64,000 bases of DNA from IMG/VR virus record IMGVR_UViG_3300024262_003767; one strand, written 5' to 3'. The translations under genes and the position numbers were made by a program. Positions 3,176 to 62,967 of this stretch are shown here, piece by piece. The stretch's first letter is position 1; every line of letters starts with the position of its first letter. The stretch comes from a virus. The notes beneath the pieces were generated by a model. The model was not told where the DNA came from. It did not search any database and saw only the letters and a program-made list of their open reading frames with translations.

Positions 3176-3461
3176 ATCTATTTTTATTTTTATATATAAA
3201 AATGTTATGGTAATGTTATATTCTAATTTAGATTTTGTAACTTTTTTATTCTAACATATTTTAATAAGTCTGAAAAGTCTAATTTTACAACATTCAACAT
3301 TTGTCTCATATTAAATCTATTATAACTAGGTGTGGATTCAACATCAACAAAATATGCTATCTCACAATCACAATTAATATCTATAATACCGATATTTTTA
3401 TTATCAATTTGATAAATTGATTTGACACTCAAATTGTATTTGTGTTCTAAATAATCATTTA

Positions 3462-3671
3462 TTATTTGTTCTTTGAAAACCATTTTCTTGTGATTTTATC
3501 GAAAATCTTATCTCCATAATATTTTATAACGGTGGCAATTGTTGATATAACAAAAGATGCAACGATACTATCAAGTAATCCGAAACCATAAAATACCATA
3601 GATATTGTTATTACTATAAATATTAGTAAAAATAAGATTTTATATTTCTCCATTATTTGTGTAACTTTCAT
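3462..3671 (-). CDS. Small membrane protein (two predicted TM helices)
   Basis: Hydrophobic stretches LFLLIFIVITISMVFYGFGLL and VASFVISTIATVI. Confidence 0.3.
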   Translation of the reverse strand: MKVTQIMEKYKILFLLIFIVITISMVFYGFGLLDSIVASFVISTIATVIKYYGDKIFDKITRKWFSKNK

Positions 3672-3689
3672 ATTATGATTTATTTATTT

Positions 3690-4088
3690 TTAGTAATAAT
3701 TTATATAATTTACAATTGGTAAAAATAAATTTTTAGGGAAATTTTTCCAATCAAACCATCCAATTTCTGTACATTTTTCAGGTTCCATAATTTTGGCATC
3801 ATACGATTTAGATTGACACCTTACAAAAATTGTAATATAATGCAAATCCTCTTCAATAAACATATCATTAGTAAATCTATCAACTTGTAAATTGATGATA
3901 TCTAGTCCTGTTTCTTCTTTTGCTTCTCTGATTGCACAATCTACAATTGTTTCAAATTTGTCTAATTTTCCACCAGGGAAACTCCAGGTTCCTTCGCTGT
4001 GAGCACCTTTTCTTTTCATTAGAAGAACTTTACCATCGTAATCTTCTATTATAACACCTACGCCTATGTGTGGTCTATTACATTTCAT
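3690..4088 (-). CDS. Nudix hydrolase
   Basis: Nudix box GGKLDKFETIVDCAIREAKEETGL (GX5EX7REUXEEXGU). Confidence 0.8.
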   Translation of the reverse strand: MKCNRPHIGVGVIIEDYDGKVLLMKRKGAHSEGTWSFPGGKLDKFETIVDCAIREAKEETGLDIINLQVDRFTNDMFIEEDLHYITIFVRCQSKSYDAKIMEPEKCTEIGWFDWKNFPKNLFLPIVNYINYY

Positions 4089-4705
4089 TTTCTATTTTAT
4101 TTAATTTGGTTTTTCTTATATCTTTTTCTAATTTTTTCTTTAATCTATCAAAATCTGATATTTCAAAGAAATACTCAAATGCATTTTCATATGTTTCTTT
4201 TGTGATATAATATGTCTCTCCGTCTTTGGTATATGTTCGGGGTGGTAGTATTTTAAAAAAGTATGTAGTATCACGATTAAATCCAGAACTTCTTTCTAAT
4301 CTGATTATATCACCACTATATAAAAAAGTAAACATTCCTCTATCTACATATTTAGTATTGGTATTTTCATCGGGTATATCATATCCTTTCTGAACCCCAA
4401 TATCAATCAATCCTAATATAAATTCATCATTCATCATTTATTTGCTCTAATTTCTTTTTTCTCAAATTTTTTCTCAAATGTTCTTTATATCTATCAGATT
4501 TTAATAAGAAGTTTTTTATTTCATTTTGTGTTGATTTTAAACCACAAGTAATAGATCCACTTGAGTATGTTAGCCAACCATTATGAAAAAAAAGATATTG
4601 ACCTCTATTAATAATTATACATTCTCCTAGTAAACCACTATCTTTTTTCAAAACATATATATCCTCGGGTATATCAAAAAAATCTATTGCTTCTAATAAA
4701 GTCAT

Positions 4706-5215: not shown

Positions 5216-5216
5216 T

Positions 5217-5651
5217 TTAATAGTCTGTTATTAATTTTCCAATTAGATGATCATATTCGTGTTGAATTATACGTGCCATAACACCTTCAAATTCTTGTTG
5301 TTTATACTCCCATGCTCTATTGTGATATTGTATTCTAACTCTACCTTTTCGTGTGACAGTTATTGGTATATCAGGCACACTCAAACAACCTTCAGTCATT
5401 TGTTCTGAATGACCAAATGCGTATATTTTAGGATTTATATATGTTTCCTCAAAACCTTCATATGAAACAATAAATAGGTTTAAATTTTTACTAACTTGTG
5501 GTGCTGCTAATCCAACCCCAGTTGATGATCTCAAAGTTTCAAACATATCCGATATTAACTTTTTAGAATGTTCATTATTTATAACATCTATGTTTGGTTT
5601 TCTTAATATACCTCTTGGATCTTGATTATATTTTATTACATCTAATATCAT
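5217..5651 (-). CDS. def: Peptide deformylase
   Basis: All three PDF motifs: GVGLAAPQ, EGCLS, QHEYDHL (HExxH). Confidence 0.9.
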   Translation of the reverse strand: MILDVIKYNQDPRGILRKPNIDVINNEHSKKLISDMFETLRSSTGVGLAAPQVSKNLNLFIVSYEGFEETYINPKIYAFGHSEQMTEGCLSVPDIPITVTRKGRVRIQYHNRAWEYKQQEFEGVMARIIQHEYDHLIGKLITDY

Positions 5652-5657: not shown

Positions 5658-6491
5658 TTATATAATTTTTAATTTTTTAAGTTTATCTTTATCATAAACT
5701 TCTATTTTTTTGTCTCTATATTGTTTTTTAAAAGCAAGATATTTATCTTTTGCATCATCTCTCCACCAGCCTTTAACTTCAACATATAAATCACAATCAA
5801 TAAGGTAAAAATCTGGTCTATATGTTCCTTCAGCATTATTATAATTGATAGGAAATGCTTCTGGTTCAAAGAACCATTCTATGTTATTTTTATCCAAATA
5901 AGTTGCATATTTTATTTCCCAAGAACTTCTCATCCACACAGAATCACCATTTTTACATTTATACCATTCACCTTTACCATGATAACATTTACCATAAAAA
6001 TTAGATTCCTTACCTCTTTTTACATTTTTACTTTTATTGATTAGCATTTTTTGATATCTTATGTTTGCTTCTATTTCGCCATATTTTTCTAACCAAACAC
6101 TAAATACTGAACGACCATACATTGGATTTTTATCACCAGACATTTTGACACTTATCTTTTTTTTAGTTTTGTCTGAATGATAATTACCTATGTTAGATTG
6201 ACTTATTTTTTTCTTTACCTCGTCTGTTCTATGCTTACCTTTAAAATGATGTGTATTATTTTTGTGCCATTCGATAAGTTTTTCAATCTTAACATCTTTA
6301 TTTGTATTCGCATTCACTTTATTAGAACACGATAAGCATAGATCATTTTTAACTGCATATCTATATTTTTTTTCTACTTCAGCATCACAATCTTTACATT
6401 TCCAAATTACAGTCTTTTCGCTACTTGGTTTCAAATCATTTGAATAATACCCAAACATATCCTTTGTTTTTTGTTCTAAAATAATACCCAT
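5658..6491 (-). CDS. Homing-endonuclease-like protein: Zn ribbon, NUMOD3 repeats, and a PD-(D/E)xK-like C-terminus
   Basis: WKCKDCDAE..CLSCSNK; NUMOD3-like KGKHRTDEVKKKISQSNIG and HSDKTKKKISVKMSGDKNPMYG; C-terminal YRPDFYLIDCDLYVEVKGWW. Confidence 0.6.
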   Translation of the reverse strand: MGIILEQKTKDMFGYYSNDLKPSSEKTVIWKCKDCDAEVEKKYRYAVKNDLCLSCSNKVNANTNKDVKIEKLIEWHKNNTHHFKGKHRTDEVKKKISQSNIGNYHSDKTKKKISVKMSGDKNPMYGRSVFSVWLEKYGEIEANIRYQKMLINKSKNVKRGKESNFYGKCYHGKGEWYKCKNGDSVWMRSSWEIKYATYLDKNNIEWFFEPEAFPINYNNAEGTYRPDFYLIDCDLYVEVKGWWRDDAKDKYLAFKKQYRDKKIEVYDKDKLKKLKII

Positions 6492-6554
6492 AACATTTAT
6501 ATATTTTTCGATTATATATAAATATATACCAGTTGTATTTGTACCAAAAACAAA

Positions 6555-7838: not shown

Positions 7839-8660
7839 TTAAGAAATGTTTTCAAGTTTTAATGCTCTGATTTGTTTTTTAGAAAAAATATTAGTTTTTG
7901 ACTTCTTTATTAAATGTGAAAATATTTTATTTTGTATTAATTTTTTCTTTACGGAAAAATCCGCATTTACTATTTTTTCTTCAAATTCAATTAAACATTC
8001 AGGCTCACGACCATCACCTAAATAAACTTTATCTCCTACTGTGTGAAACCAAAACCATTCTATTTTAATGTCATTTTCTTTAAACAATTTATCTACTTCT
8101 GAACTTAAATAATAATAAAAATATGTTAATAATTCAGTTAAAAATTCAGTTTCAGAAAATCCATCATTACTATTTAAATAATAATACCAAAAATTACTAG
8201 GTTCAACACCTAACTCAAGACAAAGATTATCAATTTTATCAATATTTTTGTTGGTTTTATTAAAAACATAGTCATTAAACAAACTTTTAAATGATTTAGT
8301 ATCTCCATTACCTTTATCACAATTACATTTTGAACACATTGTCTGATAATTGGTAGAAGTGTTTTTACCACCTTTAGATTTTGGTATGATGTGATCTTTC
8401 GTCATTAAAATTTCATCACCGTTTTCATTTACACCATACATATTGATGTGATATTTTTCAATTTCGGGTAAATGCTTCTCAATTGCTAAAAAAATTCCTT
8501 CAAGTCCACATTCAACACAGAATCTATTTTCTTGAAATAATTTGTATCGTTGTGAGGTTATCTTAACAGTAACCCCGTTAATTGTTCGGTATCTATTTGG
8601 TCCTACACTATCCTTTAGTTTTTTTAAATAACTTATATCTAATTTACTATGTCTTATCAT
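7839..8660 (-). CDS. HNH endonuclease
   Basis: HIIPKSKGGKNTSTNYQTMCSKCNCDKGNG HNH motif with Cys ligands. Confidence 0.75.
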   Translation of the reverse strand: MIRHSKLDISYLKKLKDSVGPNRYRTINGVTVKITSQRYKLFQENRFCVECGLEGIFLAIEKHLPEIEKYHINMYGVNENGDEILMTKDHIIPKSKGGKNTSTNYQTMCSKCNCDKGNGDTKSFKSLFNDYVFNKTNKNIDKIDNLCLELGVEPSNFWYYYLNSNDGFSETEFLTELLTYFYYYLSSEVDKLFKENDIKIEWFWFHTVGDKVYLGDGREPECLIEFEEKIVNADFSVKKKLIQNKIFSHLIKKSKTNIFSKKQIRALKLENIS

Positions 8661-8675: not shown

Positions 8676-9188
8676 TTATTTCAGGTAAATAGGATCAACG
8701 TGATCAACTAACCATACACCATTTTCTGATTGATAAAATTTAATTTTATCAACAATCATTGGATAAGTATCAATTTTGAAGATATATGGAGTATCATTTT
8801 TACAATATCTATTTGCAACATCTAAAGCAGTATCATAATCAGCACTTAGATGTACATGATTTCTTTTCATTTTAGAAAGTCCATTTTTTCTAATTGATTT
8901 AACATTTCTAGATGCTGTGCCGTGATATAAAAATTTTGGTGGCATCTTTGATTTCAATTCAACATCAACTTTTAAAGAATGTCCTTGATTTGCTCTAATT
9001 TTAGTTTCATCTTCATTAAAACTAAATCTTTTCTTATCATTATTATCTACAATCCATTGTAAATCTTCAAATGATATATTAACTTTATTCAATAAATCAT
9101 CAACATCAACCCAACCATTTTTATCCATAGACAAATCTTCTGGGTTATGTCTTAATAAATAACTTATTTGTATTCCTTTATTTTTCAT
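8676..9188 (-). CDS. kptA: RNA 2'-phosphotransferase Tpt1/KptA
   Basis: LSYLLRHNPEDL...NGWVDVDDLL, RANQGHS, HGTASRNVKSIRKNGLSKMKRNHVHL, matching Tpt1 family conserved blocks. Confidence 0.8.
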   Translation of the reverse strand: MKNKGIQISYLLRHNPEDLSMDKNGWVDVDDLLNKVNISFEDLQWIVDNNDKKRFSFNEDETKIRANQGHSLKVDVELKSKMPPKFLYHGTASRNVKSIRKNGLSKMKRNHVHLSADYDTALDVANRYCKNDTPYIFKIDTYPMIVDKIKFYQSENGVWLVDHVDPIYLK

Positions 9189-11070: not shown

Positions 11071-11120
11071 AATTTTAATGCTTTTTCTTTTATATATAAA
11101 TAAAAATATTTTTTGTTTAA

Positions 11121-11684
11121 ATGACTGAAAATTTAATAATTGTTGATGTACAACCAACATATAACAAATTTATAGATTTTGATATTGGTGAATTTGTTAG
11201 TTGGATAAATAACTCATCTTTTGATGAGGTTTTTTGTTTATATAATGGTCCTGAATTAGGTTATGAAGATGATGAATGGAGAATATCAAATTGGTATTAT
11301 GATTGGGGATTAGATAGGGATATAAGTTTTAGATTTTTTGAAAAATCTTATGGTTGGTTTCGTGATTTTATGGAAGATATGGATGATGATAATATAATTT
11401 CTATTGGTAAATATATGATAGAACACGACATATGGGATTCGAGATATTTTAAAAAGAAAGATATAAAAATTTTAAAAGATAGAGGAATAAGTACAAGGTA
11501 TTTAGGTAAAGAAAGTAGAGTAATGTATATACCTGAATTAAAAGATTACTTATCAAATAATATATATACTAACGAAGAAATTATTATTTGTGGTGGTGGT
11601 GTCGATGAATGTTACAAAGAAGTTAATATGTTATTGGAAATGATGGGATATAAATTTAAAGAAAAAATAAAATTTGTCTATTAA
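11121..11684 (+). CDS. Isochorismatase-like hydrolase (weak)
   Basis: N-terminal IIVDVQPTY and C-terminal IIICGGGVDECYKEV...GYKF resemble isochorismatase-family motifs. Confidence 0.3.
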   Translation: MTENLIIVDVQPTYNKFIDFDIGEFVSWINNSSFDEVFCLYNGPELGYEDDEWRISNWYYDWGLDRDISFRFFEKSYGWFRDFMEDMDDDNIISIGKYMIEHDIWDSRYFKKKDIKILKDRGISTRYLGKESRVMYIPELKDYLSNNIYTNEEIIICGGGVDECYKEVNMLLEMMGYKFKEKIKFVY

Positions 11685-12703: not shown

Positions 12704-13767
12704 AAAATTAATATATACAGTACAATGAAAAGATTGAAAAAGTTAAACGAATTATTTTTTGATAGAAGTGAATTAGATGATGGTAATGTTAGATTTTACC
12801 TATTAAATCCCGATACAAATAAAGGTTTTGCGTTTGATGTAGAACGTGAAGATATGAATACTTTAGAAGATATCCTGAAACGCAACAATGTAGTATATGA
12901 AATTGATGATGGTGGAAATGATTTACCGTTTTAAAAAATGAAATAAAAAATTAAATATATACATTTGGAAAATAAAATACAACACATGTTTAAAAATACC
13001 TCTGAAAGATTTAAAGATATGAATTTCGGGCAAAAAATAATTATCGGCATTTTAACAACCGTTGGTGCCGCAATAATTATAGGGTTATTTATTATGGCAA
13101 CAAAAGTATATTCTTTTGAAGTTGATATAACAGACATTAAAGGTGATATGAAAGAAAAAGCGGCAATAGAGTATGTTGACAAATCTATCGAAAATATAGA
13201 TATTAGTGTTGGTACAAATGGCGAAAAAATAAAAGCTATCAAAGAAGAAGATATCAAAGACATAAAGGAAGGTATCAAAGATTTAAATAATAAAATAGAT
13301 GAAAACCAAAAATTCATCCTTGAGTATATCAAAAACAAATAAAAATTTCCATAAATTATACATTTTTTAAACTTCACAATATTTTTTAATATATAATCAT
13401 CAAATTAAAAAATAATTTGTGATATGAAAAGAAAATATAGTGATTATTTGGACGCATCAGGAAATTGGCAATTATTAGTAAATGGTGACGAAGATAGTTG
13501 GTGGGATTATAAAGGTGATTGTATTGAAAGAATTTTAGAATTATTAAGTTCAGAAAGTGGTTTACAGGAATTTGATTATGAAGGTGACATTCTAGATTTA
13601 GAAGATCTTAAATATGAATTGGAAAGTCTTTCTGAAGAAGATTTTTATACTGTATTAGAAGAAATAAAAAGAGAGTGTGATTTTTCAGGTGATATTAAAA
13701 TGTTTAATATATCAGATGAAGATGAAATAGATTTCTTAAAAGAAGAAAAAGAGTATTACGATTTCGA

Positions 13768-14487
13768 TTAATCTTTATCCAACATAAATAAAGCCAAATC
13801 ATATTTTATTGGATCTTGGCTATCCATCTTTTTCAAATTATTAGTTAGTTCAATAACTGATTTCCAATCGTTTTGATTTCTGGTAAGTAATCCAAATTCT
13901 CTTGACATGTTTCCAACATGAACATCAAGAGGTATGTATAAATTGGACTTATCTATATTTTTCCATAATCCAAAATCTACATTATCATCTCTAACCATCC
14001 ATCTTAAAAACATATTTAATCTTTTTGCCGCTGAATTGTTTTCTACGTTGGAAAGGTGTTTTTCACTTCGTTGTTCATGTTCAAGAGAGAAAAAAATTTT
14101 CCAAAATCTAATTAAACTATTTTTTATATCATTCGTGAAAAATGTTTCCAATCCACTATAATTCAAATAAATATATCTTAGAGATTTCATATAATATATC
14201 ATATCAATATCCTTAATTGTTCTATGTTTAAATCCTTTAAGATTATTAAAATCTCCATATAAAATATAATTGTGAGGTTCATTATTCATTAATTCCATTA
14301 ATGAGTTTGACTTATTTATGATAATATCTCTCCTACCAAATGATATTATAGAAGTTAAAAATGCTGAGATTTCTATATCATAGAAACATTCAAATCTATG
14401 TGGAATTGATATTGGGTCATTTTCTATGAATAATTTATTATTATTAATTTTATAACTTTCTTCAAGTTGCTCTTTTATGTCTTTCAT
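13768..14487 (-). CDS. DUF2400/TIGR02757-like hypothetical protein
   Basis: NDPISIPHRFECFYDIEISAFLTSIISFGRRDII block reminiscent of that family. Confidence 0.3.
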   Translation of the reverse strand: MKDIKEQLEESYKINNNKLFIENDPISIPHRFECFYDIEISAFLTSIISFGRRDIIINKSNSLMELMNNEPHNYILYGDFNNLKGFKHRTIKDIDMIYYMKSLRYIYLNYSGLETFFTNDIKNSLIRFWKIFFSLEHEQRSEKHLSNVENNSAAKRLNMFLRWMVRDDNVDFGLWKNIDKSNLYIPLDVHVGNMSREFGLLTRNQNDWKSVIELTNNLKKMDSQDPIKYDLALFMLDKD

Positions 14488-14500: not shown

Positions 14501-15514
14501 TTATAAATTTTTTAAATTATATTTTAAATACCAATCTATAAATTTCTTTATTCCAATTTTGTATGATGTTGAAGGTTTAAAATCTATTGCTTCTTCCAGT
14601 AATGTGGTGTCTGCACCAGCATATCGAATATTTGTTATGTTGTTTCCAACAAAATCTTTTTCTGACTCTTTATTTAAATTTTTTTCAATCTCTTTAATAA
14701 AATCCATAATATTAATTGGTTCAGAATTACCAATATTATAAATTTTACATAAACCTATACTATTATCCTTCATTAATAAATAAATGCTTTTTACAACATC
14801 ATCAATATAAGTAAAATCTCTATAAATTTTACCATCATTATAAATTGTTATTGGTTTATTATTTATTATTTTTTTAGTAAAAATATAAGCGGCACTATCT
14901 GGTCTACCCCAAGGACCATAAACACTAAATAATCTCATACCTATTGTTTTAATGTTATGTATATGGCTATATGTGTGAGCCATTAATTCGTTAGATTTTT
15001 TAGTTGATGCACACATAGATATTGGTAAATTGGTGTTGTCTGTTTCTTTTAATAATATTTTACTTCTATCTGCTGTTAATCCATATACTGAAGATGCGCT
15101 TGCATACATTATTTTATCTACACCATAATCTTTTGATATTTCTAAAACACTATTAAACCCATGAATATTAATATTAATAAATTTGCTTGGATATACTTCA
15201 CTTAATTTTATTCCCGTAAGAGCAGCAAGATGTATAACAATTTTTACATGAAATTCTGAAAATATTTCTCTTAACCTTTTTGTATCGTTAATTTCTACAT
15301 ACGAAAAATCAAAATTTGAATATTTTTTACTTGTTACTGCTCTACCAATTTCTATTGTATCTATTCCTAATTCTTTAAGTCTATCTAATTTAATAGTATT
15401 ACTATAACCTATTTCTTCAAGAAAATCAACGCCAATAACATCTTCACCTTGTTCAATTAAATATTTTGCCAAATTAAACCCTACAAATCCAGCAACACCA
15501 GTAATTAGTATCAT
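14501..15514 (-). CDS. NAD-dependent nucleotide-sugar epimerase/dehydratase (UDP-glucuronate 4-epimerase-like); start re-assigned to MILITG
   Basis: ILITGVAGFVGFNLAKYL Rossmann motif; YSASKKSNELMAHTYSH (YxxxK); the first 28 aa of the track ORF is an AT-rich leader. Confidence 0.8.
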   Translation of the reverse strand: MILITGVAGFVGFNLAKYLIEQGEDVIGVDFLEEIGYSNTIKLDRLKELGIDTIEIGRAVTSKKYSNFDFSYVEINDTKRLREIFSEFHVKIVIHLAALTGIKLSEVYPSKFININIHGFNSVLEISKDYGVDKIMYASASSVYGLTADRSKILLKETDNTNLPISMCASTKKSNELMAHTYSHIHNIKTIGMRLFSVYGPWGRPDSAAYIFTKKIINNKPITIYNDGKIYRDFTYIDDVVKSIYLLMKDNSIGLCKIYNIGNSEPINIMDFIKEIEKNLNKESEKDFVGNNITNIRYAGADTTLLEEAIDFKPSTSYKIGIKKFIDWYLKYNLKNL

Positions 15515-49760: not shown

Positions 49761-49777
49761 TCGTTTTTTATTATTTT

Positions 49778-51375: not shown

Positions 51376-51376
51376 A

Positions 51377-52078
51377 TTATAAAAATTTTCCTATTGTTTC
51401 TGATTCAATTTCAATATCTTTTACTGAATTAATAACAAGTATATTATAATCGATTACTAACATTTCAATATATTTATCTAATTCTTCTTCTGTTCCTAAC
51501 CCTTTTGTTGCGGCAAGATTTAAGATAACTTGAAATCCAGCATTGGACAAATCCTTTAAAGTTTCACCTACACAGTAATTAAGTGCTAATCCACCAACAA
51601 TAATTGTTGTTATATTGTGATAATTATAAAATTCAATCAACCCAGTCGAAATTTTACCTTCTTGATCGTGATAAACACTTGTGTAAGGGTGTAGGTGTGG
51701 ATCGACTCCCTTATTTACAATAAAGTTAAAATCTTCAATTTTACCAAGTTCATCAAGAATTTCCGAACCAAATGTTCCTGATTCACAATGCAAATTCCAA
51801 AACATATCAACATTTTTGTGTCCAACTATAGGTGTGAATTGAGGATTTTCTTCAGTTGCTACCCATAACGCATTTTTTGAGTGCATATCTCTTGATATGG
51901 TTTTAACAATTCCTATTAAATTTTGTTTTGCTAATTCTTTACCAATTAGGTGTCCATCAGGTACAGGTAGTTCATTAGGACAGAGTGGAGTAAATCCCTT
52001 TTGAGGGTCAACGTTGTGACTTGCTGTTCTTTCGCTAATCACTCTAATCTTATTCGTATTTTCAAAACTTATATTCAT
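51377..52078 (-). CDS. pncA: Nicotinamidase (PncA, isochorismatase family)
   Basis: VDPQKGF (Asp), NLHCESG, KGVDP (Lys), IIVGGLALNYCV (Cys), in PncA order. Confidence 0.8.
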   Translation of the reverse strand: MNISFENTNKIRVISERTASHNVDPQKGFTPLCPNELPVPDGHLIGKELAKQNLIGIVKTISRDMHSKNALWVATEENPQFTPIVGHKNVDMFWNLHCESGTFGSEILDELGKIEDFNFIVNKGVDPHLHPYTSVYHDQEGKISTGLIEFYNYHNITTIIVGGLALNYCVGETLKDLSNAGFQVILNLAATKGLGTEEELDKYIEMLVIDYNILVINSVKDIEIESETIGKFL

Positions 52079-53033
52079 AATATTTTATTTATTTTTATGT
52101 TACAAAAGTAATACTTTTTTTAATAATAAAAAAATTGTATTGTTAAAGAATAACAATACAATTTTTATTCGTGAATTCTTTTAAAGTTTTCAATATATTT
52201 AGACATATTTACGGAGCCTATAATATTTTGAGTGTGAATTATACATATTGGTAATTTTTCATTATTATCAATACAGTAATCACACAACCATTTGACACAC
52301 TCCATACCTGTTTTTTCGGTGTATTTTGAGTAATCAACATCATCTTGATTTAATAAATATTGATAATGTTCATCTGCTAAATCGTGATCAAAACTAATCA
52401 TTTGAGGTAAACCATTTAACTCAATACATTTAATAAATTGATCGTAAGACCTAACAATAACCCAATCGAGATTTATATAGTCCATATTTTGTGTATAGTA
52501 ATATGCGTCCTCATAATTTCCATGAGGGGAATATGGAACTCTTTCATCATCTAAAAACAAATTGTACATAATTTTACCTTTTAAGTGTGCTAAATTAATA
52601 AAAAAAATTGGAATAAAAAATTACAGTTTCTGTAACATAGTTATTATTTCGGTTAATGTTTCATCGTAATTGAGAATTCTTTTGTGTAAACTCTCATATC
52701 TTTCGTGGAAAAAGACATCACGATTTTTTACTGTAATATATGTGTCGTCTTTTTTGAAATTTATCTTAAATTGGTAGTTTCTATTATCATACTCAATATT
52801 ATGAATAACTTCATTATATTGAAAATCTCTCCACGTTCTACTAAATCTAGTTTTAATAACAAATTTGCATGGTTCATTTTTAAAAACCTTATTTAGATTT
52901 TCCAGTTCAATACGTATATGTCGTCCTCTTTGGTTATACATATTATATTCATCTATTTTTGTTATCATAATCACTATATATAAAAAAAACCTCCCAAAAA
53001 ATTGAGAGGTTTTTTAAGATTAAACATTAAAGT

Positions 53034-54539
53034 TTACTTCTTATCAGGTTTTTCAGTTTTTTTGGTTTTTGCTTTTTCTTCAAGCAATTTAACCATATCT
53101 GCATTACCTTCTAAGAATCCAGGCATATTCTGACCAACCATTTTAAAAGCGTCATCCATTGGAGGAACAGATTTTAAAAGGTTTGTCAACCAATTAGAAG
53201 TAGATGATCCAGCACCTTCACCACCATTACCAGTATCCCAAACTGTGATGTTATCAAATTTAATTTCTTTGATAGCTTCAACTTGAGTTCTAATAATTTC
53301 TGGAAGTTTGTCTGCAATCATCATTTGGACAGCCTTATCAGGATCACCACCCGCTGCACTTACATAAGCGGCAAAACCTTCGGCTTGTTTTGTCATTTGT
53401 TCAAACGTACCACGAGCCTGAGCATCCATCATAAAGAATACTCCATCAGCCTTACCTTTTTCAACTCTACGAATTCTTTCAGCTTCAGCCTCAGCATCTA
53501 CTTCAATTTTTTCTTTTTGAATCTGTGCAGGTACAACAATATCAGCGAATTTTTGAGAACGTTCTCTTTCTGCTCTCGCATCTTCAGCGATTTTCTCAGC
53601 TTTGTATGACTCTTCAAGAGCGTTTGCTGATTTTGTTTTTTGAGCAACGACAATTTTACGATCAGCCTCAGCTTCGGCTTCTCTCCTACCAGCAATAGAA
53701 TTTGCGATTTCAATAGCCGCTTTATTTTCACCATCAACAGCAGTTGAGTTAAAGGCTGCAGTATCAATTCTCATATTCTTATCTGCTTCTTTTTCACCAA
53801 TAACGGCTCTTGAATTAGCAGATGCGACTTTAATTCTTTGCTCTCTTTGAGCCTCAGCGACACCAATATCCCCATCTCTATCTTTCTCAGCAACTGATTT
53901 CTTTGCTTCGTTAATAGCCTGAGCCGCAGCTTCTTTACCAAGAGCCTCAATATAACCAGATTCATCATCAATATCTTTAATATTAACGTTGATAAGTTTC
54001 AAACCAACTTTCTTAAGTTCGTTTTCAACATTATCTTGAATCTTACTCAAGAAAGCGTCACGGTTAGCGTTGATTTCTTCAATAGTAAGAGTTGCGATAA
54101 TCGCCCTCATTTGACCAAAAATAATATCCTGAGCCAACGCTACGATTTGTGTATCTTGAAATCCCAACATTCTTTCAGCGGCATTAATTTTGAATTCATC
54201 TTCTGATGAAATCGCAACGGTGTACGTTGAAGGAACATTTACACGAATATTCTGATTCGAAAGTGCAGATTTCAAATCAACTTCAAAAGACATAGGTTTC
54301 AGAGATAAGAACTTGTATTCCTGAATGATAGGCCAAACAAATACACCACCTCCGTGATATACTCTGGCGCTGGCGTGTCCTGACCGTCCTTGTGAGTCGG
54401 CTTTTCCCTTCACACGCCCATATACAACTAAAAGTTGATCAGAAGGGCACCTTTTATATCTTGCTTTAAAAGTAAAGAAGAATGCGAAAAAGGCAATCGC
54501 TGCTAATCCAATGATAATAGCAATCGAAAATGATACCAT
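53034..54539 (-). CDS. SPFH/band-7 flotillin-like protein (YqiK type) with a long Ala/Glu-rich coiled-coil tail
   Basis: N-terminal TM helix, SPFH core, EA-rich repeats AEAEADRKIVVAQ..., 501 aa. Confidence 0.85.
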   Translation of the reverse strand: MVSFSIAIIIGLAAIAFFAFFFTFKARYKRCPSDQLLVVYGRVKGKADSQGRSGHASARVYHGGGVFVWPIIQEYKFLSLKPMSFEVDLKSALSNQNIRVNVPSTYTVAISSEDEFKINAAERMLGFQDTQIVALAQDIIFGQMRAIIATLTIEEINANRDAFLSKIQDNVENELKKVGLKLINVNIKDIDDESGYIEALGKEAAAQAINEAKKSVAEKDRDGDIGVAEAQREQRIKVASANSRAVIGEKEADKNMRIDTAAFNSTAVDGENKAAIEIANSIAGRREAEAEADRKIVVAQKTKSANALEESYKAEKIAEDARAERERSQKFADIVVPAQIQKEKIEVDAEAEAERIRRVEKGKADGVFFMMDAQARGTFEQMTKQAEGFAAYVSAAGGDPDKAVQMMIADKLPEIIRTQVEAIKEIKFDNITVWDTGNGGEGAGSSTSNWLTNLLKSVPPMDDAFKMVGQNMPGFLEGNADMVKLLEEKAKTKKTEKPDKK

Positions 54540-55720: not shown

Positions 55721-56407
55721 TTATATTACGTTTATTTCATTAGCCATACAAACTTCACCATAATCTTTGATAAGTTTGTCCATATCATCAAATGAGATAT
55801 ATGCAAATCCTTTTTTACCCCATTCTCTACCCCAAGAATTTTTAATTCTTATTAGTTTCTTTTTAACATTAACACCATCTAATAAATATGCGTGTCCGCC
55901 CATTTTATTTCCTGTTGGAGTTATAATACCTTCACTATTTGGAAAAAACATATCATAGTACCACCAAGTACCAACAACAACAGGACCTAATGTTAATAAT
56001 GCGTTTACTGTTGTGTCAATATCCCAAGCCCAATTATATCCATTAATATACCCTGCAGATTGTAAAACTTTAGCACCAGCTCTAACACTAGTTCCATCAT
56101 AATCTTCACCAGGCCAACGATCTATCTTTTGTGCTTCATTATATAAATATTCTGTATCATAAGGTGCTACTCCACCTTTTCTACTTGCTTTTTGTGTTAT
56201 TGGACCAGAGGCTAACCAATGTATCCAACTAAATGCAACACAATGAGGTTTATAACCTTGATTTCCCCACCATCCATTTGTCCACCAATATTTATAATCT
56301 ATACCTGGTAATTTTTTAGGTAGCATTGAACTAATTAGGAATTGATGATCCCTATCATCAGGTTTTATAAATCTACCTAATCTTGATTTTAATTGATTTT
56401 CATTCAT
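55721..56407 (-). CDS. Papain-like cysteine peptidase (C1 family)
   Basis: QGYKPHCVAFSWIH (Cys region, cf. QGSCGSCWAFS), GGHAYLLDG (His), NSWGREWGKKGF (Asn/Trp). Confidence 0.75.
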   Translation of the reverse strand: MNENQLKSRLGRFIKPDDRDHQFLISSMLPKKLPGIDYKYWWTNGWWGNQGYKPHCVAFSWIHWLASGPITQKASRKGGVAPYDTEYLYNEAQKIDRWPGEDYDGTSVRAGAKVLQSAGYINGYNWAWDIDTTVNALLTLGPVVVGTWWYYDMFFPNSEGIITPTGNKMGGHAYLLDGVNVKKKLIRIKNSWGREWGKKGFAYISFDDMDKLIKDYGEVCMANEINVI

Positions 56408-56431
56408 AGAATGTGATTTTTATTCTATATA

Positions 56432-57583
56432 TTAAAATTCAGAATTATAAATGGATTTGTAAAATTTACCCCAATTAAAATACTTATCCATTGTTTGAAA
56501 TATATCATCAAGAGTTATCTTATGAATAAGGTGTTCCATACTCCAACATTCAGGTTCAATATATTTATTGACATTTGCGTGTCTTAATATGTCGTTCTTT
56601 TTTAGTTTAACTAAAAAATTATCTTTAATAATATCAAATCTATCTTGTGTCAAATAAATTTCTTTATTACTTAATACTTTACCTATTTCTTCTTGCAAAT
56701 GCTCTACATTCTTATTTGAAGTCTCAGTTAAGATTGTAACAACTGAAGATGTATTATTTAATTTTTGGTTAATACATTGAACATAATATGCTAATCCTGA
56801 TTTTTCTCTAATTTCTTGATATAGTGGAGAATTTAATCCAGAACCTAACATACTACAAGTATAACTAATTAATGGAAAATCTTCAGTTGCAACATTTGAA
56901 ATATTTATAATTGATTGTTTATTTTTATATTCGTTAATTAACTCTAACGGCACTAAACCTTCGGGTATAATGATATCATCATTAGTTCTAATTCCAAATG
57001 TTTCCGTTTCGATAAATTTGAATGGGGTATTTATAATACTATCTCTAAAATCAACATTAAAATCAAAATCATTGTTTTTAGATACATTAATTATCATTGT
57101 AGGTTTCTTATAGAAAAGATTTAAATATTCTTTACAATCATCTAAAGTGAAATTTTCTATATCACACCTTAATCCTATTGGGTGATAATAACCAAACATT
57201 TTTCTATTTAAATTTAGAAAATGGTTATTCATCTGTTCATTAAATGAATCTTTATATTCTTCCAAAACAATTTTTTTCTCATTTTCTAATTCTTCTTCTG
57301 TTGGATCATAAGATAGAATCAATTCTAGAAATTCATATTTATATTTATTAACATATTCATCCAATCCATTCATATAAAAAACTACTTCTGTATTAGATGT
57401 ATATGCGTTCCAAGCGACACCATATCTTTGAAAATCATCTTGTAAATGTTCAAATGACTTACAAATTAAATGCTCACAGATATGGGAGGCTCCAAATGTT
57501 CCAACTTTTTCTACCATTGTAGATCCATCAAATATTATATAAAATGAGGATAATTCTATTTCACTTTTAATGTTTTTTATCAT
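56432..57583 (-). CDS. M16 (pitrilysin) family metallopeptidase-like protein
   Basis: Inverted zincin HICEH (HxxEH) followed by GVAWNAYTSNTEVVFY (cf. NAFTSREHTVYY). Confidence 0.7.
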   Translation of the reverse strand: MIKNIKSEIELSSFYIIFDGSTMVEKVGTFGASHICEHLICKSFEHLQDDFQRYGVAWNAYTSNTEVVFYMNGLDEYVNKYKYEFLELILSYDPTEEELENEKKIVLEEYKDSFNEQMNNHFLNLNRKMFGYYHPIGLRCDIENFTLDDCKEYLNLFYKKPTMIINVSKNNDFDFNVDFRDSIINTPFKFIETETFGIRTNDDIIIPEGLVPLELINEYKNKQSIINISNVATEDFPLISYTCSMLGSGLNSPLYQEIREKSGLAYYVQCINQKLNNTSSVVTILTETSNKNVEHLQEEIGKVLSNKEIYLTQDRFDIIKDNFLVKLKKNDILRHANVNKYIEPECWSMEHLIHKITLDDIFQTMDKYFNWGKFYKSIYNSEF

Positions 57584-58111: not shown

Positions 58112-61100
58112 TTAAAAATCTGTTATCAAAGATGATATCAAATTATCATTTTTCTTAACAGTTATTAATCCATCATAATTTATTGGATGAACATGCTCAA
58201 TTATAATAATTTTATCAATTTTATTTTTTATTTCGTCTAATAGTTCAATAAATTCCATAACAGATTTTTCATATAATTTGCCCATAATCTCATCAAGAAT
58301 AATAAAATTAGGTCTTGATTTTACATTAATTTGTCTTAATGCAATTTTTAATGTTAATGCACAAAATGTTCTTTCTTTACCTGATGATTCGATTGCATTT
58401 TGTGAAACATCTAATCTATCATCCATACTTAATTTTAAAATTAAATCATCATTAAAGAATAATGTAAAATCAACATTAGTCAATAAGTCGTTCAATTCTT
58501 TATTTATTAGATGTATAGATTTTTTTAGAAGATAAGTAGGAATACCGTCTCTGGATATACATCTCTGGTACTCTTTCATTAGTTCTTCTTGCTTTTTTTG
58601 TTGAATAAATTTCTCAATTCGTGATTGAATATCTTCTATTGATTTTTCTAATAATGCTATTTCTTTTTTAATTTCAGATATTACTATATATTTTTCATCA
58701 ATATTACTTTTCAATTCTAAAATATACACATCTTTATCATCAATGTCTAATTGAGTTTGTTTATTTTCCTCAATTTGTGATTCATACATTTTAAAATTAT
58801 TAATAGTTTGTTCTATTTCTTTAATCTTCAAAAGATAATTATCAATATTTAATGTTAGTTTTTCTTTTAAATTGACTTTATCTTTTCTTAGTTCGTAATT
58901 TTCTTTAATTTTTTCTTCATGTTGAATATCATCTTCAATAGATTCAATATTTAATGATTTTAACTCGTTTTCAAGATTTTTAATTACCGATAAATTGTCA
59001 TTTTTATCTTTATCTAATTTTTTCAATAACATTTTACCTTTATCAAATTTATTTTTTAATTCTTCATTAATTGATAAATCATTATTTTTTAATCTTTCAA
59101 TTAACGATTCAATCATTAATATTTCATTCTCAAGATATTTAGTATCTTGAAGAACGTTTAATTCTGATAATATTTCTTCGTCATATTCACCACTTGTTAA
59201 TTTATCTCGTTTTAATCTGAGAGTCTGAATTTTTTCCTCTAATTCGGGTATAATAGGTGTTAAATCTTTATATTCCTCAATTAAATCCTTTATTTTAATA
59301 GTATTAATTTCTATATCATGTTCTAATGTTTTAATCTTTTCTTGAATGTGTTCTAAATGATCGGGTGTAGATTCGTCATAATCTCTACCACATGCAGGAC
59401 AAAAACTTGAATTTTTAAATTCTTCAATTTCTTGAAGTTTCTCATCATTTCGTGATTTTAAATTTGAACCATCTTTTTTCAGATTTCTAATTTTATTTTC
59501 GAGATTAATTTTTTCAAGTTCATTCTTCTTTATCTCATCTTTAATTGATATTATTTTTGAGTTTATTATACTCAATTTTTCACTTTCAACATTAGAAATT
59601 TCTTTTTCTTTAATGTTAATTTTGTCTTTTAAATTATTAATTTCTTTATCTCTAAACTCTCTAAGTTTTTGTTTTACTTTATCAACCTTCGTATCAATTT
59701 CATTATTATTTGTTTTAACTGATGATATTTCTTCTTTTATTTTTGAAATTTTATCATTAGTTAATTTTAATTTATCTTTTAAATTGTTAAGTTTATCTGG
59801 CTCAAATTTAGAAGGTAATTCATTTATATCTCTATCATAGATACTTATTTGTACTTTATTATCATCAATCTTTTGATTATAATTTGATAATGTATTATTT
59901 GAAATATTCAGATCAAAATTGATCATCGATTCATCAATTTTATTTAATTTTTTAATTAAATTATCTCTTAAAGAATTTTCACTATCCAATTCTAATTTAA
60001 AATCTATAATCAATTTCTTTTGTTCTTTTATCGTATTTTTCTTCTCTTCTATTACATTTACGATTTCAGAAATCTCTTGCTCTGATTGACTAACATCAAC
60101 TATAATTTTTTCAATGTTGAGATCTTTTTTATAATCTTTATATTCATTTTGTTTCTTTTCAAAAATATCATAACCAGCATCTCTAATGATGCTATCCATA
60201 AACACACTTCTATCAGCAGATAAAAGTTCATTCAAATTATCTGCATTAGTTAATGATATTCTAACAAAATCTTTAAAATCACCAAGAATAAGATCTAATT
60301 TCTTTTGAGTTTGAGTTTTTCTTTCACCAGTTTGTTTATTCTTTTCTTTTATTTCTTCAGTATCATAATAGTCCACATTGGTAGAACAAGATTTTATTTC
60401 TCCACTTCTATTTTCATCTCGTTCAGTTTTTCTCAAAATTGTAATTTTTTCACCATCAATATCTAAAACAGCGCCACCTGAACATTTATTTAATTTTCGT
60501 TTATTGTTAATATATCTATTATCACCGTGTTTTTCTCTTTTTACGGTAGTTGTGGTTGTACCATAAAGAATATATGTTATAACATCTAAAATAGTAGTTT
60601 TTCCTTGTTGGTTTTCACCATGAATTTGTATGATACCATTTAAATCTTTCCAATCAATTTTATTTTTATCACCAAAAACTCTAAAATTATCAAACCAAAA
60701 TTTTTCAATTTTCCACTCAATGTTAGTTTTTTGTTCTTTAATCTCTAATCTATCATTAATTAAATCATCAATTTTTAAAATTTCATCAATATCATTTTTT
60801 TTATATCCTTGTTCTTCAAGATATTCTTTAAATATTTTACGTTGAGTTTCAACATTTGTTAAATCTAATGTTTCAGATAACATTTTAGATGAAACCATAT
60901 CTGTATAAATGTATGTTTTATCAAATTTTACTTTGGTTGAATCATATTTATTTTTAATAAAGTTTCGTATTTTTCTTTCATTTTCAGTATTGATGTTGGA
61001 ACTTAAATCTTTCCAATGCACTTTAAATTCAGGAAAATTTCCAATTCTTTCATTTGTGTGTAATGTCAAATTATCATAATCTTCACCTTCATTGATATAT

Positions 61101-61279
61101 AAATTGATAAATGTATATTCATTAAGAATATCTATTTCTTCAACTCTAAAGTCAGTTTTACTTTTTATATCCCAAACCAAAAATCCATGTTTATCAACAT
61201 CTTCACCAAATGATTGTTGAACTGGACTACCAGGGTAACCAATAGTTGGTATTTTTTTCTTTATTTTTATTTTAGACAT
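58112..61279 (-). CDS. sbcC: Fusion ORF: C-terminal half of SbcD/Mre11 (about 190 aa, starting ..IGYPGSPVQQSFGED) joined in frame to SbcC/Rad50-type ATPase (Walker A, coiled coil, CxxC hook, signature/Walker B)
   Basis: IGYPGSPVQQSFGED matches SbcD VRYCGSPIPLSFDE just after motif V; Rad50 N-lobe IEKFWFDNFRVFG...GENQQGKTT; zinc hook SSFCPACG; C-terminal IIILDEIMGKL. Confidence 0.8.
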   Translation of the reverse strand: MSKIKIKKKIPTIGYPGSPVQQSFGEDVDKHGFLVWDIKSKTDFRVEEIDILNEYTFINLYINEGEDYDNLTLHTNERIGNFPEFKVHWKDLSSNINTENERKIRNFIKNKYDSTKVKFDKTYIYTDMVSSKMLSETLDLTNVETQRKIFKEYLEEQGYKKNDIDEILKIDDLINDRLEIKEQKTNIEWKIEKFWFDNFRVFGDKNKIDWKDLNGIIQIHGENQQGKTTILDVITYILYGTTTTTVKREKHGDNRYINNKRKLNKCSGGAVLDIDGEKITILRKTERDENRSGEIKSCSTNVDYYDTEEIKEKNKQTGERKTQTQKKLDLILGDFKDFVRISLTNADNLNELLSADRSVFMDSIIRDAGYDIFEKKQNEYKDYKKDLNIEKIIVDVSQSEQEISEIVNVIEEKKNTIKEQKKLIIDFKLELDSENSLRDNLIKKLNKIDESMINFDLNISNNTLSNYNQKIDDNKVQISIYDRDINELPSKFEPDKLNNLKDKLKLTNDKISKIKEEISSVKTNNNEIDTKVDKVKQKLREFRDKEINNLKDKINIKEKEISNVESEKLSIINSKIISIKDEIKKNELEKINLENKIRNLKKDGSNLKSRNDEKLQEIEEFKNSSFCPACGRDYDESTPDHLEHIQEKIKTLEHDIEINTIKIKDLIEEYKDLTPIIPELEEKIQTLRLKRDKLTSGEYDEEILSELNVLQDTKYLENEILMIESLIERLKNNDLSINEELKNKFDKGKMLLKKLDKDKNDNLSVIKNLENELKSLNIESIEDDIQHEEKIKENYELRKDKVNLKEKLTLNIDNYLLKIKEIEQTINNFKMYESQIEENKQTQLDIDDKDVYILELKSNIDEKYIVISEIKKEIALLEKSIEDIQSRIEKFIQQKKQEELMKEYQRCISRDGIPTYLLKKSIHLINKELNDLLTNVDFTLFFNDDLILKLSMDDRLDVSQNAIESSGKERTFCALTLKIALRQINVKSRPNFIILDEIMGKLYEKSVMEFIELLDEIKNKIDKIIIIEHVHPINYDGLITVKKNDNLISSLITDF

Positions 61280-62148
61280 TTATTTAATTTTATTTTAAAT
61301 TCACCATTTAGAATATTGGTTTCCCAGAACCTTAAAATATTAAAATTATTAGATTTTGAAAGTTCATCTTTAAAAATATCATTTTCAATATTTAACATCT
61401 GAGTCTTATTTAATTCATTTATATTAAATATGTTGGGGTTAGCATGCCAATAATCACCATCTGCCTCAATAATTATATTTTTATCTATTAACATAAAATC
61501 ATATATTTTATATCTTAATTTACCATCAAGTTTATAGTATATTCTAAATTGTGGTTTATATTTTATTGATTTTTCATCTAAAAAATCACCTATAATTTTT
61601 TCTATTTTAGTTTTACTTTTTTTAAATAACCCTTTATGTGCGATTTCCGTCATACTTAAACCATATCTTTCAATGCAAGTATTATTAATTTTTTTTCTAC
61701 ATTCATCGTCTTTCCAATTATGTGTTGTACCATATCGTTCTAAGAACGTATTTTTTCTTTTTATTTTTGATTCAGGTTTCCATCCAAATGGAAATTCATT
61801 ATTTTGATTATATTCTAATTTAGATTTCCTAACTTTATTTTTATAATTTTCATCACTCCACAATTTTTTAGTTATTTTTGAATGTAAATCTTTACTTTCT
61901 TGTGTTTTTACCTTACCAAACATTGGATTTTTTTCACCAACATATATAATTTTTTTATGCTCATCACAACATTTCCTTGAGCAATATTTTTTATCATCAG
62001 ATACTAATACTTCAATATCAACTCCACAATTTATACAATAAATAATTTTTCTTTCAACCTTAGATTTCTTATAATCTTTATATTGACATTTCCTTGAACA
62101 ATATTTCTTATTATTATGTTTCTCACCACAAACTATACATTTTTTCAT
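61267..62148 (-). CDS. Homing-endonuclease-like protein (Zn ribbons, NUMOD3, PD-(D/E)xK-like C-terminus) inserted within sbcD
   Basis: CIVCGEKHNNKKYCSRKC, CINCG...CSRKC; NUMOD3-like GEKNPMFGKVKTQESKDLHSKITKK; C-terminal YKIYDFMLIDKNIIIEADGDYWH. Confidence 0.55.
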   Translation of the reverse strand: MKKCIVCGEKHNNKKYCSRKCQYKDYKKSKVERKIIYCINCGVDIEVLVSDDKKYCSRKCCDEHKKIIYVGEKNPMFGKVKTQESKDLHSKITKKLWSDENYKNKVRKSKLEYNQNNEFPFGWKPESKIKRKNTFLERYGTTHNWKDDECRKKINNTCIERYGLSMTEIAHKGLFKKSKTKIEKIIGDFLDEKSIKYKPQFRIYYKLDGKLRYKIYDFMLIDKNIIIEADGDYWHANPNIFNINELNKTQMLNIENDIFKDELSKSNNFNILRFWETNILNGEFKIKLNKCLK

Positions 62149-62191
62149 AGATTTTTTGTTGTTTTATAGTATATATAAAAATATAATACTA

Positions 62192-62848
62192 CTATTCTGA
62201 TAATATCCAACCATTTTTTAAATATTCATCTAAGTCTTTATCATCTATCTCCATTTCTACTTCTTTATATTTGAAAAACTGCCTTTTATGTATATCACCA
62301 AGAAAAAGAAAATCATTCTTTTTAAAATCATTAATACTCTTGTACATACTATCAGTAAAAAATTTACCTCTATCGGTAGAACTATTTTGTATAGGGTCAT
62401 GAAACAAACCTATATAAATTTGTTCTTTTTTCTTTGTTTGTCCAACCCAAGGATCATTTAATTTGTCAGGGTGATCATATACAACCCAAGATATATTACC
62501 TTCATCATAAATACCTGTTGTGTCATAATATGTCACATTAGGATTATCAATCAATTTAACTACAACCTTTATACTATCAGTTCTATTTAAATTTTTCTTA
62601 CGCAAATCGTGATTACCTCTTGTTATAATAACTTTGGCTATATGTGAAAGTTTGTTTAAAAATTCACCACCGAGTATTTTTGCTTCATTGGAAATTTCAA
62701 TAAAATTTTCAAATAAATCACCAACAATTACAATTTTTTCTGGTTGTCTTATTTTTAATTCGTTATATATTTTTTCAAATACTTCTCTATACTCATCATG
62801 TCTCTCTACATTTCTAATGTGTACATCTGCTAAATGTGCTATCTTCAT
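62192..62848 (-). CDS. sbcD: SbcD/Mre11 nuclease N-terminal fragment (phosphoesterase motifs I-V)
   Basis: LADVHI, VGDLFE, RGNHD, LFHDPI, FLGDIHKRQ (cf. E. coli ALGHIHRAQ); ends about 25 aa after motif V. Confidence 0.8.
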   Translation of the reverse strand: MKIAHLADVHIRNVERHDEYREVFEKIYNELKIRQPEKIVIVGDLFENFIEISNEAKILGGEFLNKLSHIAKVIITRGNHDLRKKNLNRTDSIKVVVKLIDNPNVTYYDTTGIYDEGNISWVVYDHPDKLNDPWVGQTKKKEQIYIGLFHDPIQNSSTDRGKFFTDSMYKSINDFKKNDFLFLGDIHKRQFFKYKEVEMEIDDKDLDEYLKNGWILSE

Positions 62849-62967
62849 TCAACTTCTTATTTTTTATTTAGAATAAATCTAATTATTATATGTTATACCC
62901 TTGAAATAGTTTAATGAAAAATAAATTATGAATTTTTATATATAAAAGAAAATTAATCATTAGTCAC

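Follow-up and report, generated by a model that had tools for sequence, protein, structure and literature searches.

The window analysed here is the whole stretch of 64,000 nucleotides (nt) of the IMG/VR virus record IMGVR_UViG_3300024262_003767, and the element under study is an 8-bp A/T box, WATATATA, that precedes about 28 of its genes. The window has a GC content of 24-31% and is 93% coding, with 91 open reading frames (ORFs) called by a simple program that takes ATG starts only, for which reason some of the box-to-ATG distances given below are approximate. The spacers amount to 4,423 nt (6.9%) with 18% GC, compared with 27% in the coding sequence. The box is real and enriched, is oriented with respect to the coding strand, lies at the starts of operons and is conserved across the clade to which the window belongs. 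A first-pass annotation of the same DNA had proposed A/T boxes upstream of many genes as a candidate viral promoter, and a TATATA-type box was found at all 13 positions that it had listed (3186 to 62935); the individual sites are collected in Table 1.

Among complete genomes, the best relatives of the window proteins are the uncultured huge phages LR756501/03 (735 kb), LR756502, LR756504 and LR745206 at 31-46% identity (about 41-46% amino-acid identity for the window against the 735-kb LR756501), which are 'Mahaphage' genomes with predicted hosts in the Bacteroidetes (Al-Shayeb et al. 2020, PMC7162821). The window belongs to a 'Mahaphage'-type huge phage infecting Bacteroidota; the mention of mimivirus in the first-pass annotation suggests that a eukaryotic giant virus was in mind. 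The window sequence was also assembled in the ENA sample ERZ27249621, in contigs of 40 and 70 kb.

Of the 114 copies of TATATA in the window, 51 lie wholly inside spacers, where the hexamer is about 11 times denser than in coding sequence. A dinucleotide-preserving shuffle of each spacer gave only 11.0±3.4 such copies (maximum 21), whereas the coding sequence showed no excess (62 observed, 71±7 in shuffles). Among the spacers of at least 20 nt, 29 of 48 carried a box (8.1±2.5 in shuffles), and a sense WATATATA within 48 nt of the ATG was present in 23 of 58 upstream spacers compared with 2.0±1.4 (maximum 8) in 500 shuffles. In a Markov k-mer enrichment TATATA ranked first among the 6-mers (among the 8-mers, single GC-rich words prevailed and the ranking was of no use); a home-made expectation-maximisation motif search on upstream regions was too permissive (lambda 0.75), was used only to see a T-run, and was replaced by word counts and anchored matrices. 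In LR756501, a relative with 32% GC, TATATA reaches 7.64 per kb in spacers compared with 0.87 per kb in coding sequence. The first-pass annotation had held that a frequency no higher than in A/T-rich background or coding sequence would speak against a promoter, and the spacers exceed their shuffles while the coding sequence does not. A compositional artefact, with TA repeats being merely common in spacers poorer in GC than the genes, has next to no chance of explaining the boxes: shuffles of the same composition contain 4-10 times fewer of them, the same enrichment is seen in the less A/T-rich relative, and strand orientation and conservation in orthologous spacers, described below, also refute it.

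The coding-strand form of the motif is 5'-TT(W)ATATATA(R)-3', followed by an A-rich stretch. The form given earlier, TATATAT(T)AAA, is the reverse complement of this functional orientation, because most window genes lie on the minus strand; the box had been recognised correctly and written on the wrong strand. Since the TATATA hexamer is palindromic, orientation was tested with longer words, and all sense/antisense counts refer to spacers between co-directional genes, where the direction is unambiguous. In the window AATATATA was found 8 times in sense and 2 times in antisense, and ATATATAG 4 and 0 times; the corresponding counts in LR756501 were 76/4 and 44/1, and 54/0 for TTAATATATA. When the window was combined with 30 non-redundant related loci, TTTTATATATA gave 16/1, the sense sites preceding about a dozen different genes. 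As the related loci share ancestry, pooled counts are not fully independent, and the counts for the window only and for LR756501 only are therefore given apart. T/A counts flanking every TATATA in these spacers showed no clear asymmetry because weak and strong sites were mixed, and it was the longer words that resolved the orientation.

Matrices anchored on WATATATA showed that T is enriched at positions −3 to −1 of the box (65-80% in LR756501) and rare (about 6-10%) at the first base after it, that A makes up 75-79% at 6-8 nt after the box, and that no T-tract, TTG or other signal is present at a −35-like distance. The spacing between box end and ATG has a bimodal distribution in the window and in LR756501, with classes at 5-9 and 15-24 nt. 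The former comprises 49 and the latter 107 of the 219 boxes of LR756501, i.e., about one fifth of boxes belong to the short-spacing class (examples in the window are marked in Table 1). If initiation takes place about 6-8 nt after the box, the short class predicts leaderless mRNAs. In Flavobacterium, of the phylum Bacteroidota, most mRNAs have leaders (87% of transcripts with leaders >10 nt) and leaderless mRNAs are uncommon (PMC6847099).

Boxes stand at the starts of operons. Tightly coupled genes (<15 nt behind their neighbour) had a box within 48 nt in only 1 of 27 cases in the window and 15 of 468 in LR756501, whereas 27-50% of the genes behind a spacer or in divergent pairs had one; the figure set beside the 1 of 27 is 27-43%, for spacer-preceded genes. 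A terminator is followed directly by a box at 52975-53009 of the window and also upstream of the LR756501 orthologue of a conserved gene for a protein of 614 amino acids (aa). These distributions bear on the idea that the box is an AU-rich mRNA element which stimulates translation in place of a Shine-Dalgarno sequence, for instance by binding ribosomal protein S1 or the phage's S1-repeat protein. Bacteroidota mRNAs do lack Shine-Dalgarno sequences (PMC6847099), an S1-repeat protein is encoded in the window (39976-41106; domains read from the translation) and the box-ATG distance is fairly fixed. However, a translation signal would be needed by all genes, and the rarity of the box before tightly coupled ones speaks against it, as does the bimodal spacing; a box directly behind a terminator, in addition, would not be in the upstream transcript. 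A role in translation is in our view very improbable.

The best-conserved box is that of the 614-aa gene, upstream of which the block AAAGTTT-N-TTTT-TATATATA-GAAAAAAAG is kept in 32 distinct relatives (51-91% protein identity) while the flanks drift; a T-run and box also precede the orthologues in the related locus L004 (35% identity) and in LR756501. Conservation of the box was likewise found upstream of the ClpB-like gene and of the orthologues of the gene at 36870. The box, conserved in orthologous spacers of relatives with 35-91% protein identity, is under selection. Orientation, operon-start position, location behind a terminator and conservation in relatives together bear out, as far as sequence analysis allows, the viral promoter proposed in the first-pass annotation. 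The AAAGTTT element of the 614-aa gene promoter, 7-8 nt upstream of the T-run and box (44086-44100, minus strand; in 32 relatives, from orthologous spacers among L001-L048), was seen at this promoter only and not at other boxes. Database homologues of the 614-aa protein number more than 425, and a beta-sandwich is predicted for it; we do not claim it as a capsid protein, and Foldseek against PDB gave only generic beta-sandwich matches with TM-scores around 0.1.

A conserved box could also be the operator of a dimeric DNA-binding regulator of the phage, an activator or repressor placed beside promoters rather than a core promoter element. Its core (TATATATA, AATATATT) is palindromic, some boxes in divergent spacers could serve both directions (e.g., 29500-29509), and the extra AAAGTTT element leaves room for further factors to act. 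The flanks of the box, on the other hand, are strongly asymmetric by gene direction (see the LR756501 counts of TTAATATATA and ATATATAG above), no other conserved promoter-like element accompanies it, and its spacing to the ATG is as expected of a −10 element with short or absent leaders, so that an operator appears quite unlikely.

A second promoter class is present beside the box. TAnnTTTG gave sense/antisense counts of 26/9 in the window plus related loci and 48/18 in LR756501; G is disfavoured at the two central positions, and the element is preceded by a T-tract at 18-24 nt. In its predicted elements this class matches the Bacteroidota housekeeping promoter, which consists of a −33 TTTG and a −7 TAHHTTTG with near-invariant T−8 T−7 T−6 G−5 (PMC6847099). 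A phage-encoded NusG homologue (39403-39912, plus strand; Pfam NusG 3e-19, KOW matched weakly) agrees with transcription by a host-type multisubunit RNA polymerase, and no phage RNA polymerase genes were seen among the window proteins scanned. The TAHHTTTG class and the phage NusG support a Bacteroidota host and the use of the host polymerase. With the host polymerase clearly in use and no sigma gene among the window proteins, the box might be read by a host sigma, housekeeping or alternative, and not by a phage-encoded one. It is not of the Bacteroidota housekeeping type, however, because it has neither the invariant TTTG nor a −33 T-tract like that of the TAHHTTTG sites in the window; moreover, a gp55 homologue is a core gene of the clade (see below) and the box is one base away from the gp55 target. 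We consider recognition by a host sigma unlikely. One of the host-type promoters belongs to an NAD-salvage gene pair (50077-52078, minus strand; isochorismatase/nicotinamidase-like and NAMPT-like genes, identified by eye from translations), and the TAHHTTTG before the NAMPT-like gene is kept in relatives.

LR756501 contains T4-like homologues of gp17, gp18, gp20, gp21, gp23, UvsW, gp46, gp44, gp32 and RNase H. This gene set fits the placement of the Bacteroidetes megaphages in a T4-like group with phage sigma factors and a gp33 orthologue and without an RNA polymerase of its own (Iyer et al. 2021, PMC7824862). A box lies 17-24 nt upstream of the genes for the T4-like portal, the prohead protease and the gp23-type capsid protein and of two gp17-type terminase genes of LR756501, whereas uvsW, gp46 and the gp55-like gene lack it. 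A box before head and packaging genes and not before these three is the pattern expected of a late promoter, the presumed late timing being deduced solely from which LR756501 genes carry the box.

A candidate for the protein that reads the box is encoded in the complete relatives. A 124-aa ORF at 69450-69824 of LR756501 was first picked out by weak matches of T4 gp55 and of a gp55-family hidden Markov model (HMM). The profile of its family, made from 93 database clusters, aligned with the gp55 family at an hhalign probability of 94% (E 1.4e-7; 89 columns, gp55 residues 4-102), its top match among all PDB sequences was T4 gp55 (7d7c_F, E 0.007; next match E 0.54), and the best of 38,880 PHROGs was, weakly, 'late sigma transcription factor' (E 0.19). 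The conserved C-terminal end of the family, ISLDSxNDGxGxxNI, recalls by eye the ...SLDFLYEAND of gp55. The gene was found in 6/6 complete Mahaphage-type records (including LR756500-04 and LR745206), in 15/15 Lak phage records, in Tenacibaculum phage pT24 and Sphingomonas phage PAU, and in 456 IMG/VR loci on contigs of up to 676 kb; in LR756501 the genes for portal, protease and capsid follow it at about 2 kb. This distribution shows the putative gp55 homologue to be a core gene of the clade. The first-pass annotation had expected a virus-encoded sigma elsewhere in the genome, and every complete relative has this 124-aa gp55 homologue; the genome of the window, represented by a contig of only about 70 kb, presumably encodes it as well. 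The flanks obtained from two loci (L007, L008) had no sigma-family Pfam domain among their called genes, and no sigma is annotated in Tenacibaculum phage PTm1. The extracytoplasmic function (ECF) sigma factors of another Lac Pavin phage (LP_PHAGE_29_14, supplement of PMC7162821) were also considered, and no significant homologue was found in LR756501.

The gp55-like gene is not preceded by a TATATA box or by a TAHHTTTG element. The gene has a conserved block of its own, repeated AAGC(A/C) words followed by (C)CAAAAAATAAT 15-25 nt before the ATG (seen in L066-L142 upstream of the match start, about 3001, and at 69226-69449 of LR756501), which may be a gene-specific control region of the middle type, the word being rare elsewhere. 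The motif CCAAAAAATAA upstream of the gene was tried as a third promoter class and rejected, with 14 matches in the window compared with 12.8 expected and few in LR756501 spacers; it appears to be specific to the gp55-like gene.

On the evidence of orientation, geometry, conservation and homology, the boxes are probably −10-type promoters of a Bacteroidota-infecting Mahaphage-type phage, most likely read by the phage's gp55-like sigma on the host core polymerase, a reading to which we assign a probability of about 0.72. In the most likely mechanism, the core of the host RNA polymerase would carry the 124-aa gp55-like 'minimal' sigma, which would recognise the 8-bp box as T4 gp55 recognises TATAAATA; homology and co-occurrence suggest that this protein is the one that reads the box. 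Initiation is predicted on the A-rich stretch 6-8 nt after the box, and with start sites so placed the leaders would measure about 8-18 nt where the box ends 15-24 nt from the ATG and would be essentially absent where it ends 5-9 nt away. A separate set of genes, with promoters of the host type (−33 T-tract/TTTG, −7 TAHHTTTG), would depend on the housekeeping sigma of the host and would presumably be transcribed before the phage sigma is made.

Several observations weigh against reading the boxes as promoters of a gp55-like sigma. Many of the box-driven window genes are not classical late genes (glycosidase, epimerase, CCA-adding enzyme, ClpB-like protein, DeoC and homing endonucleases), and the best-conserved box precedes a gene whose product has no assignable function (no Pfam or PHROG matches; AlphaFold2 predicted local distance difference test score 56, predicted TM-score 0.38). 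The palindromic core of the box makes a dimeric DNA-binding protein conceivable too. Neither the window nor the 8.5 kb by which L008 extends it yielded a sigma gene, and of its own genome only contigs of about 40-70 kb are at hand. The similarity to gp55 is remote (E 0.04 with single-sequence phmmer and E 0.008 with the gp55 HMM, in a database of 1,004 proteins), is confined to the sigma-2-like N-terminal part, and concerns a protein 60 residues shorter than gp55. The search for gp55/gp33-like factors that the first-pass annotation had suggested succeeded for gp55 in the complete relatives; the T4 gp33 query detected no homologue among the 1,004 LR756501 ORFs (phmmer, best E 0.41), nor did T4 gp45 (best E 0.26), whereas the gp44 clamp loader was found in LR756501 (E 1.5e-20).

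In T4, late promoters are read by gp55 together with the co-activator gp33 and with the gp45 sliding clamp as activator, to which gp55 binds by its C-terminal tail; transcription starts about one helical turn downstream of the box start, late in infection and in connection with replication. These promoters have an 8-bp box at −10, an A/T-rich downstream segment and no −35 element, they occur in either polarity, and in 9 of 50 sites A replaces the first T at −13 (PMC2988020). The boxes described here share the A/T box without a −35, the A/T-rich (here A-rich) downstream sequence, T or A as first base and the use of both polarities, the position of the box relative to the real start being a prediction in our case; the likeness to T4 late promoters noted in the first-pass annotation thus stands, WATATATA being one position away from (T/A)ATAAATA. 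Further likenesses are the kinds of genes preceded by the box, which include those for head formation and packaging and for free-standing homing endonucleases (segE in T4), the distance to the ATG (14-35 nt for T4 measured in the same way, 15-24 nt here) and the putative gp55 homologue in the clade. The differences begin with the box itself, in which T replaces A at position 5: the T4 sequence TATAAATA or AATAAATA by which a T4-type box would be recognised gives way to WATATATA, and the canonical word TATAAATA shows no enrichment and no preferred orientation (of its 16 copies in the window 3 lie in spacers; sense/antisense 1/1 in the window and 11/13 in LR756501). In addition, the box is immediately preceded by a T-run, the short-spacing class (5-9 nt to the ATG) accounts for about one fifth of boxes, the putative sigma of the clade, with its 124 aa, aligns to no more than residues 4-102 of gp55, T4 queries detected no gp33 or gp45 in LR756501 although the gp44 clamp loader is present, and the host belongs to the Bacteroidota. 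The comparison supports a box system that would work like the T4 late system, as a variant departing from it in these features. The late-promoter consensus sequences obtained in silico for KVP40, 44RR, cyanophage S-PM2 and the Aeh1 variant change positions −13/−12 (PMC2988020). They are, like the present box, lineage-specific variants of a gp55-type box and were likewise deduced from sequence alone. The present variant is altered at an internal position of the box, where A at position 5 has become T, and it belongs to a much more distant clade with genomes of 0.5-0.7 Mb.

Other systems with A/T-rich promoters were also compared. The Bacteroidota housekeeping promoter (sigma ABfr) is present in the window as the separate second class, from which the TATATA box differs in lacking both TTTG and the −33 element. 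Asfarvirus, faustovirus and kaumoebavirus have a eukaryote-type RNA polymerase of their own. A similar word, the TATATA late-promoter motif, is reported to be enriched upstream of their genes (PMC5974111); the genes here differ in being T4-like phage genes. The promoters of the jumbo phages phiKZ and AR9 are likewise A/T-rich phage-specific motifs in very large genomes. These phages encode multisubunit polymerases and no sigma. The Bacteroidetes megaphage group, in contrast, is reported to lack an RNA polymerase and to have sigma factors (PMC7824862). No description of the WATATATA variant or of megaphage promoters or a megaphage transcription programme was found in the part of the literature that could be searched. 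The box represents a known kind of phage promoter in a sequence variant that is new, and the mechanism proposed for it is not surprising.

To our knowledge, no phage genomes are larger than those of the Mahaphage- and Lak-type phages, of which none has been cultured. With the promoter word TTWATATATAR and the TAHHTTTG class, the genes of such a genome, about 1,000 in number and mostly unannotated, can be sorted by mode of regulation; the two promoter types also help to correct start codons, to delimit operons and to support the assignment of a Bacteroidota host from sequence. The gp55-type late system would be extended to a very distant branch of the T4 superfamily with a much smaller sigma, and the compact sigma-promoter pair could be tried as an orthogonal expression tool in Bacteroidota. 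More tentatively, and with considerable doubt, the clade might run a stripped-down T4 late system in which a single-domain sigma of 124 aa, among the smallest known, suffices on the Bacteroidota polymerase without a gp33-type co-activator or clamp activation; about a fifth of the promoters would then start at the start codon (leaderless mRNAs), and the box would be a general post-early, not strictly late, promoter of 0.5-0.7-Mb phages.

Table 1. Box sites, predicted host-type promoter sites and a terminator-like hairpin in the window (distance: nt from the element to the ATG).
Element	Sequence	Position	Strand	Distance	Downstream gene	Remarks
Box	TTTT-TATATATA-A	3191-3198	-	15	GH16 glycosyl hydrolase gene, 2318-3175	
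Box		6513-6520	-	21	homing-endonuclease-like gene, 5658-6491	first of two boxes
Box		6498-6505	-	6	homing-endonuclease-like gene, 5658-6491	second of two boxes
Box	CTTT-TATATATA-A	11091-11098	+	22	11121-11684	
Box	AATATATA	12710-12717	+	7	12725-12934	short-spacing class, predicted leaderless
Box	TTTTTT-AATATATA	13388-13395	+	28	13424-13771	
Box	AATATATA-A	15536-15543	-	21	NAD-dependent epimerase gene, 14501-15514	divergent spacer
Box	TTTTT-AATATATA-G	15572-15579	+	25	15605-16657	same divergent spacer as 15536-15543, opposite direction
Box	TTTTTT-TATATATA-G	17435-17442	+	58	17501-18367	long leader or true start further upstream
Box	TTT-TATATATA-G	19380-19387	-	17	GIY-YIG endonuclease gene, 18364-19362	
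Box	TATATATA-A	19443-19450	+	14	small ORF, 19465-19614	
Box	TATATATA-G	20022-20029	-	4	ORF, 19805-20017	short-spacing class
Box	AATATATA-A	25689-25696	-	4	25334-25684	short-spacing class
Box	TTT-AATATATA-A	25993-26000	-	18	25702-25974	
Box	TTTTT-AATATATA-A	26494-26501	-	20	ORF, 26321-26473	
Box, quasi-palindromic	TTTTT-TATATATAT-TAAAAA	29500-29509	both	22 (+); 34-36 (-)	29530-30435 (+); CCA-adding enzyme gene, 28206-29465 (-)	divergent spacer
Box	AATATATA	36857-36864	+	5	36870-37331	short-spacing class; same short spacing in orthologues L001, L002; further upstream in L003
Box	TTTT-AATATATA-AG	38350-38357	-	15	endonuclease-like gene, 37324-38334	
Box	AAAGTTTACAATTT-AATATATATA-AG	44076-44085	-	25-27	conserved 614-aa gene, 42206-44050	
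Box	AATATATA-A	49496-49503	-	23	ClpB-like gene, 46956-49472	conserved in L001, L002
Box	TTTTTTT-TATATATA-G	52975-52982	-	6	52621-52968	short-spacing class; directly after terminator hairpin 52982-53009
Box	TTTT-AATATATA-G	56426-56433	-	18	papain-like peptidase gene, 55721-56407	
Box	TTTT-TATATATA-C	62170-62177	-	21	homing-endonuclease-like gene, 61267-62148	
Box	TTTT-TATATATA-A	62937-62944	+	23	deoxyribose-phosphate aldolase (DeoC) gene, 62968-63768	
Second class	TACTTTTG + upstream T-tract	1318-1325	-	37	NAD-dependent DNA ligase gene, 3-1280	
Second class		23262-23269	-			
Second class	TATCTTTG	24913-24920	-	4	24114-24908	follows hairpin and T-run
Second class		26007-26014	+			
Second class	TATATTTG + upstream T-tract	39319-39326	-	38	38390-39280	−7 element conserved in L001-L003 orthologous spacers
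Second class	TACTTTTG + upstream T-tract	52103-52110	-	24	isochorismatase-like gene, 51377-52078	heads NAMPT-like operon
Second class		63837-63844	+			
Intrinsic-terminator-like hairpin	CCTCTCAATTTTTTGGGAGG + T-run	52982-53009	-			ends flotillin-like gene, 53034-54539

Among the remaining genes of the window, the NusG gene faces the S1-repeat gene across a bidirectional terminator (39916-39959). The latter gene belongs to a translation/proteostasis cluster (5217-5651, 8676-9188, 24950-25249, 28206-29465, 39976-41106 and 46956-50080) that comprises peptide deformylase, Tpt1 RNA 2'-phosphotransferase, a ribosome hibernation factor (S30AE), the CCA-adding enzyme, the S1-repeat protein, and ClpS with the ClpB-like ATPase (the S1-repeat and ClpB-like assignments were read from translations only). 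At least six homing-endonuclease-like genes are present in the 64 kb (1422-2321, 5658-6491, 7839-8660, 18364-19362, 37324-38334 and 61267-62148), of the DUF7487, Phage_endo_I/NUMOD3, HNH, GIY-YIG and CapR/treble-clef types. Four of the six have a box at most about 20 nt from the ATG; the gene at 1422-2321 has one 51 nt upstream and that at 7839-8660 none. An Mre11/Rad50-type (gp47/gp46) gene (58112-62848, minus strand) appears to be split by a homing-endonuclease-like gene: its Metallophos part (62192-62848) is followed by the DUF7487 gene with its own box (61267-62148) and by a gp46-like ORF of 1,055 aa (58112-61279). The homologue in Tenacibaculum phage PTm1 is a single ORF of 1,318 aa.

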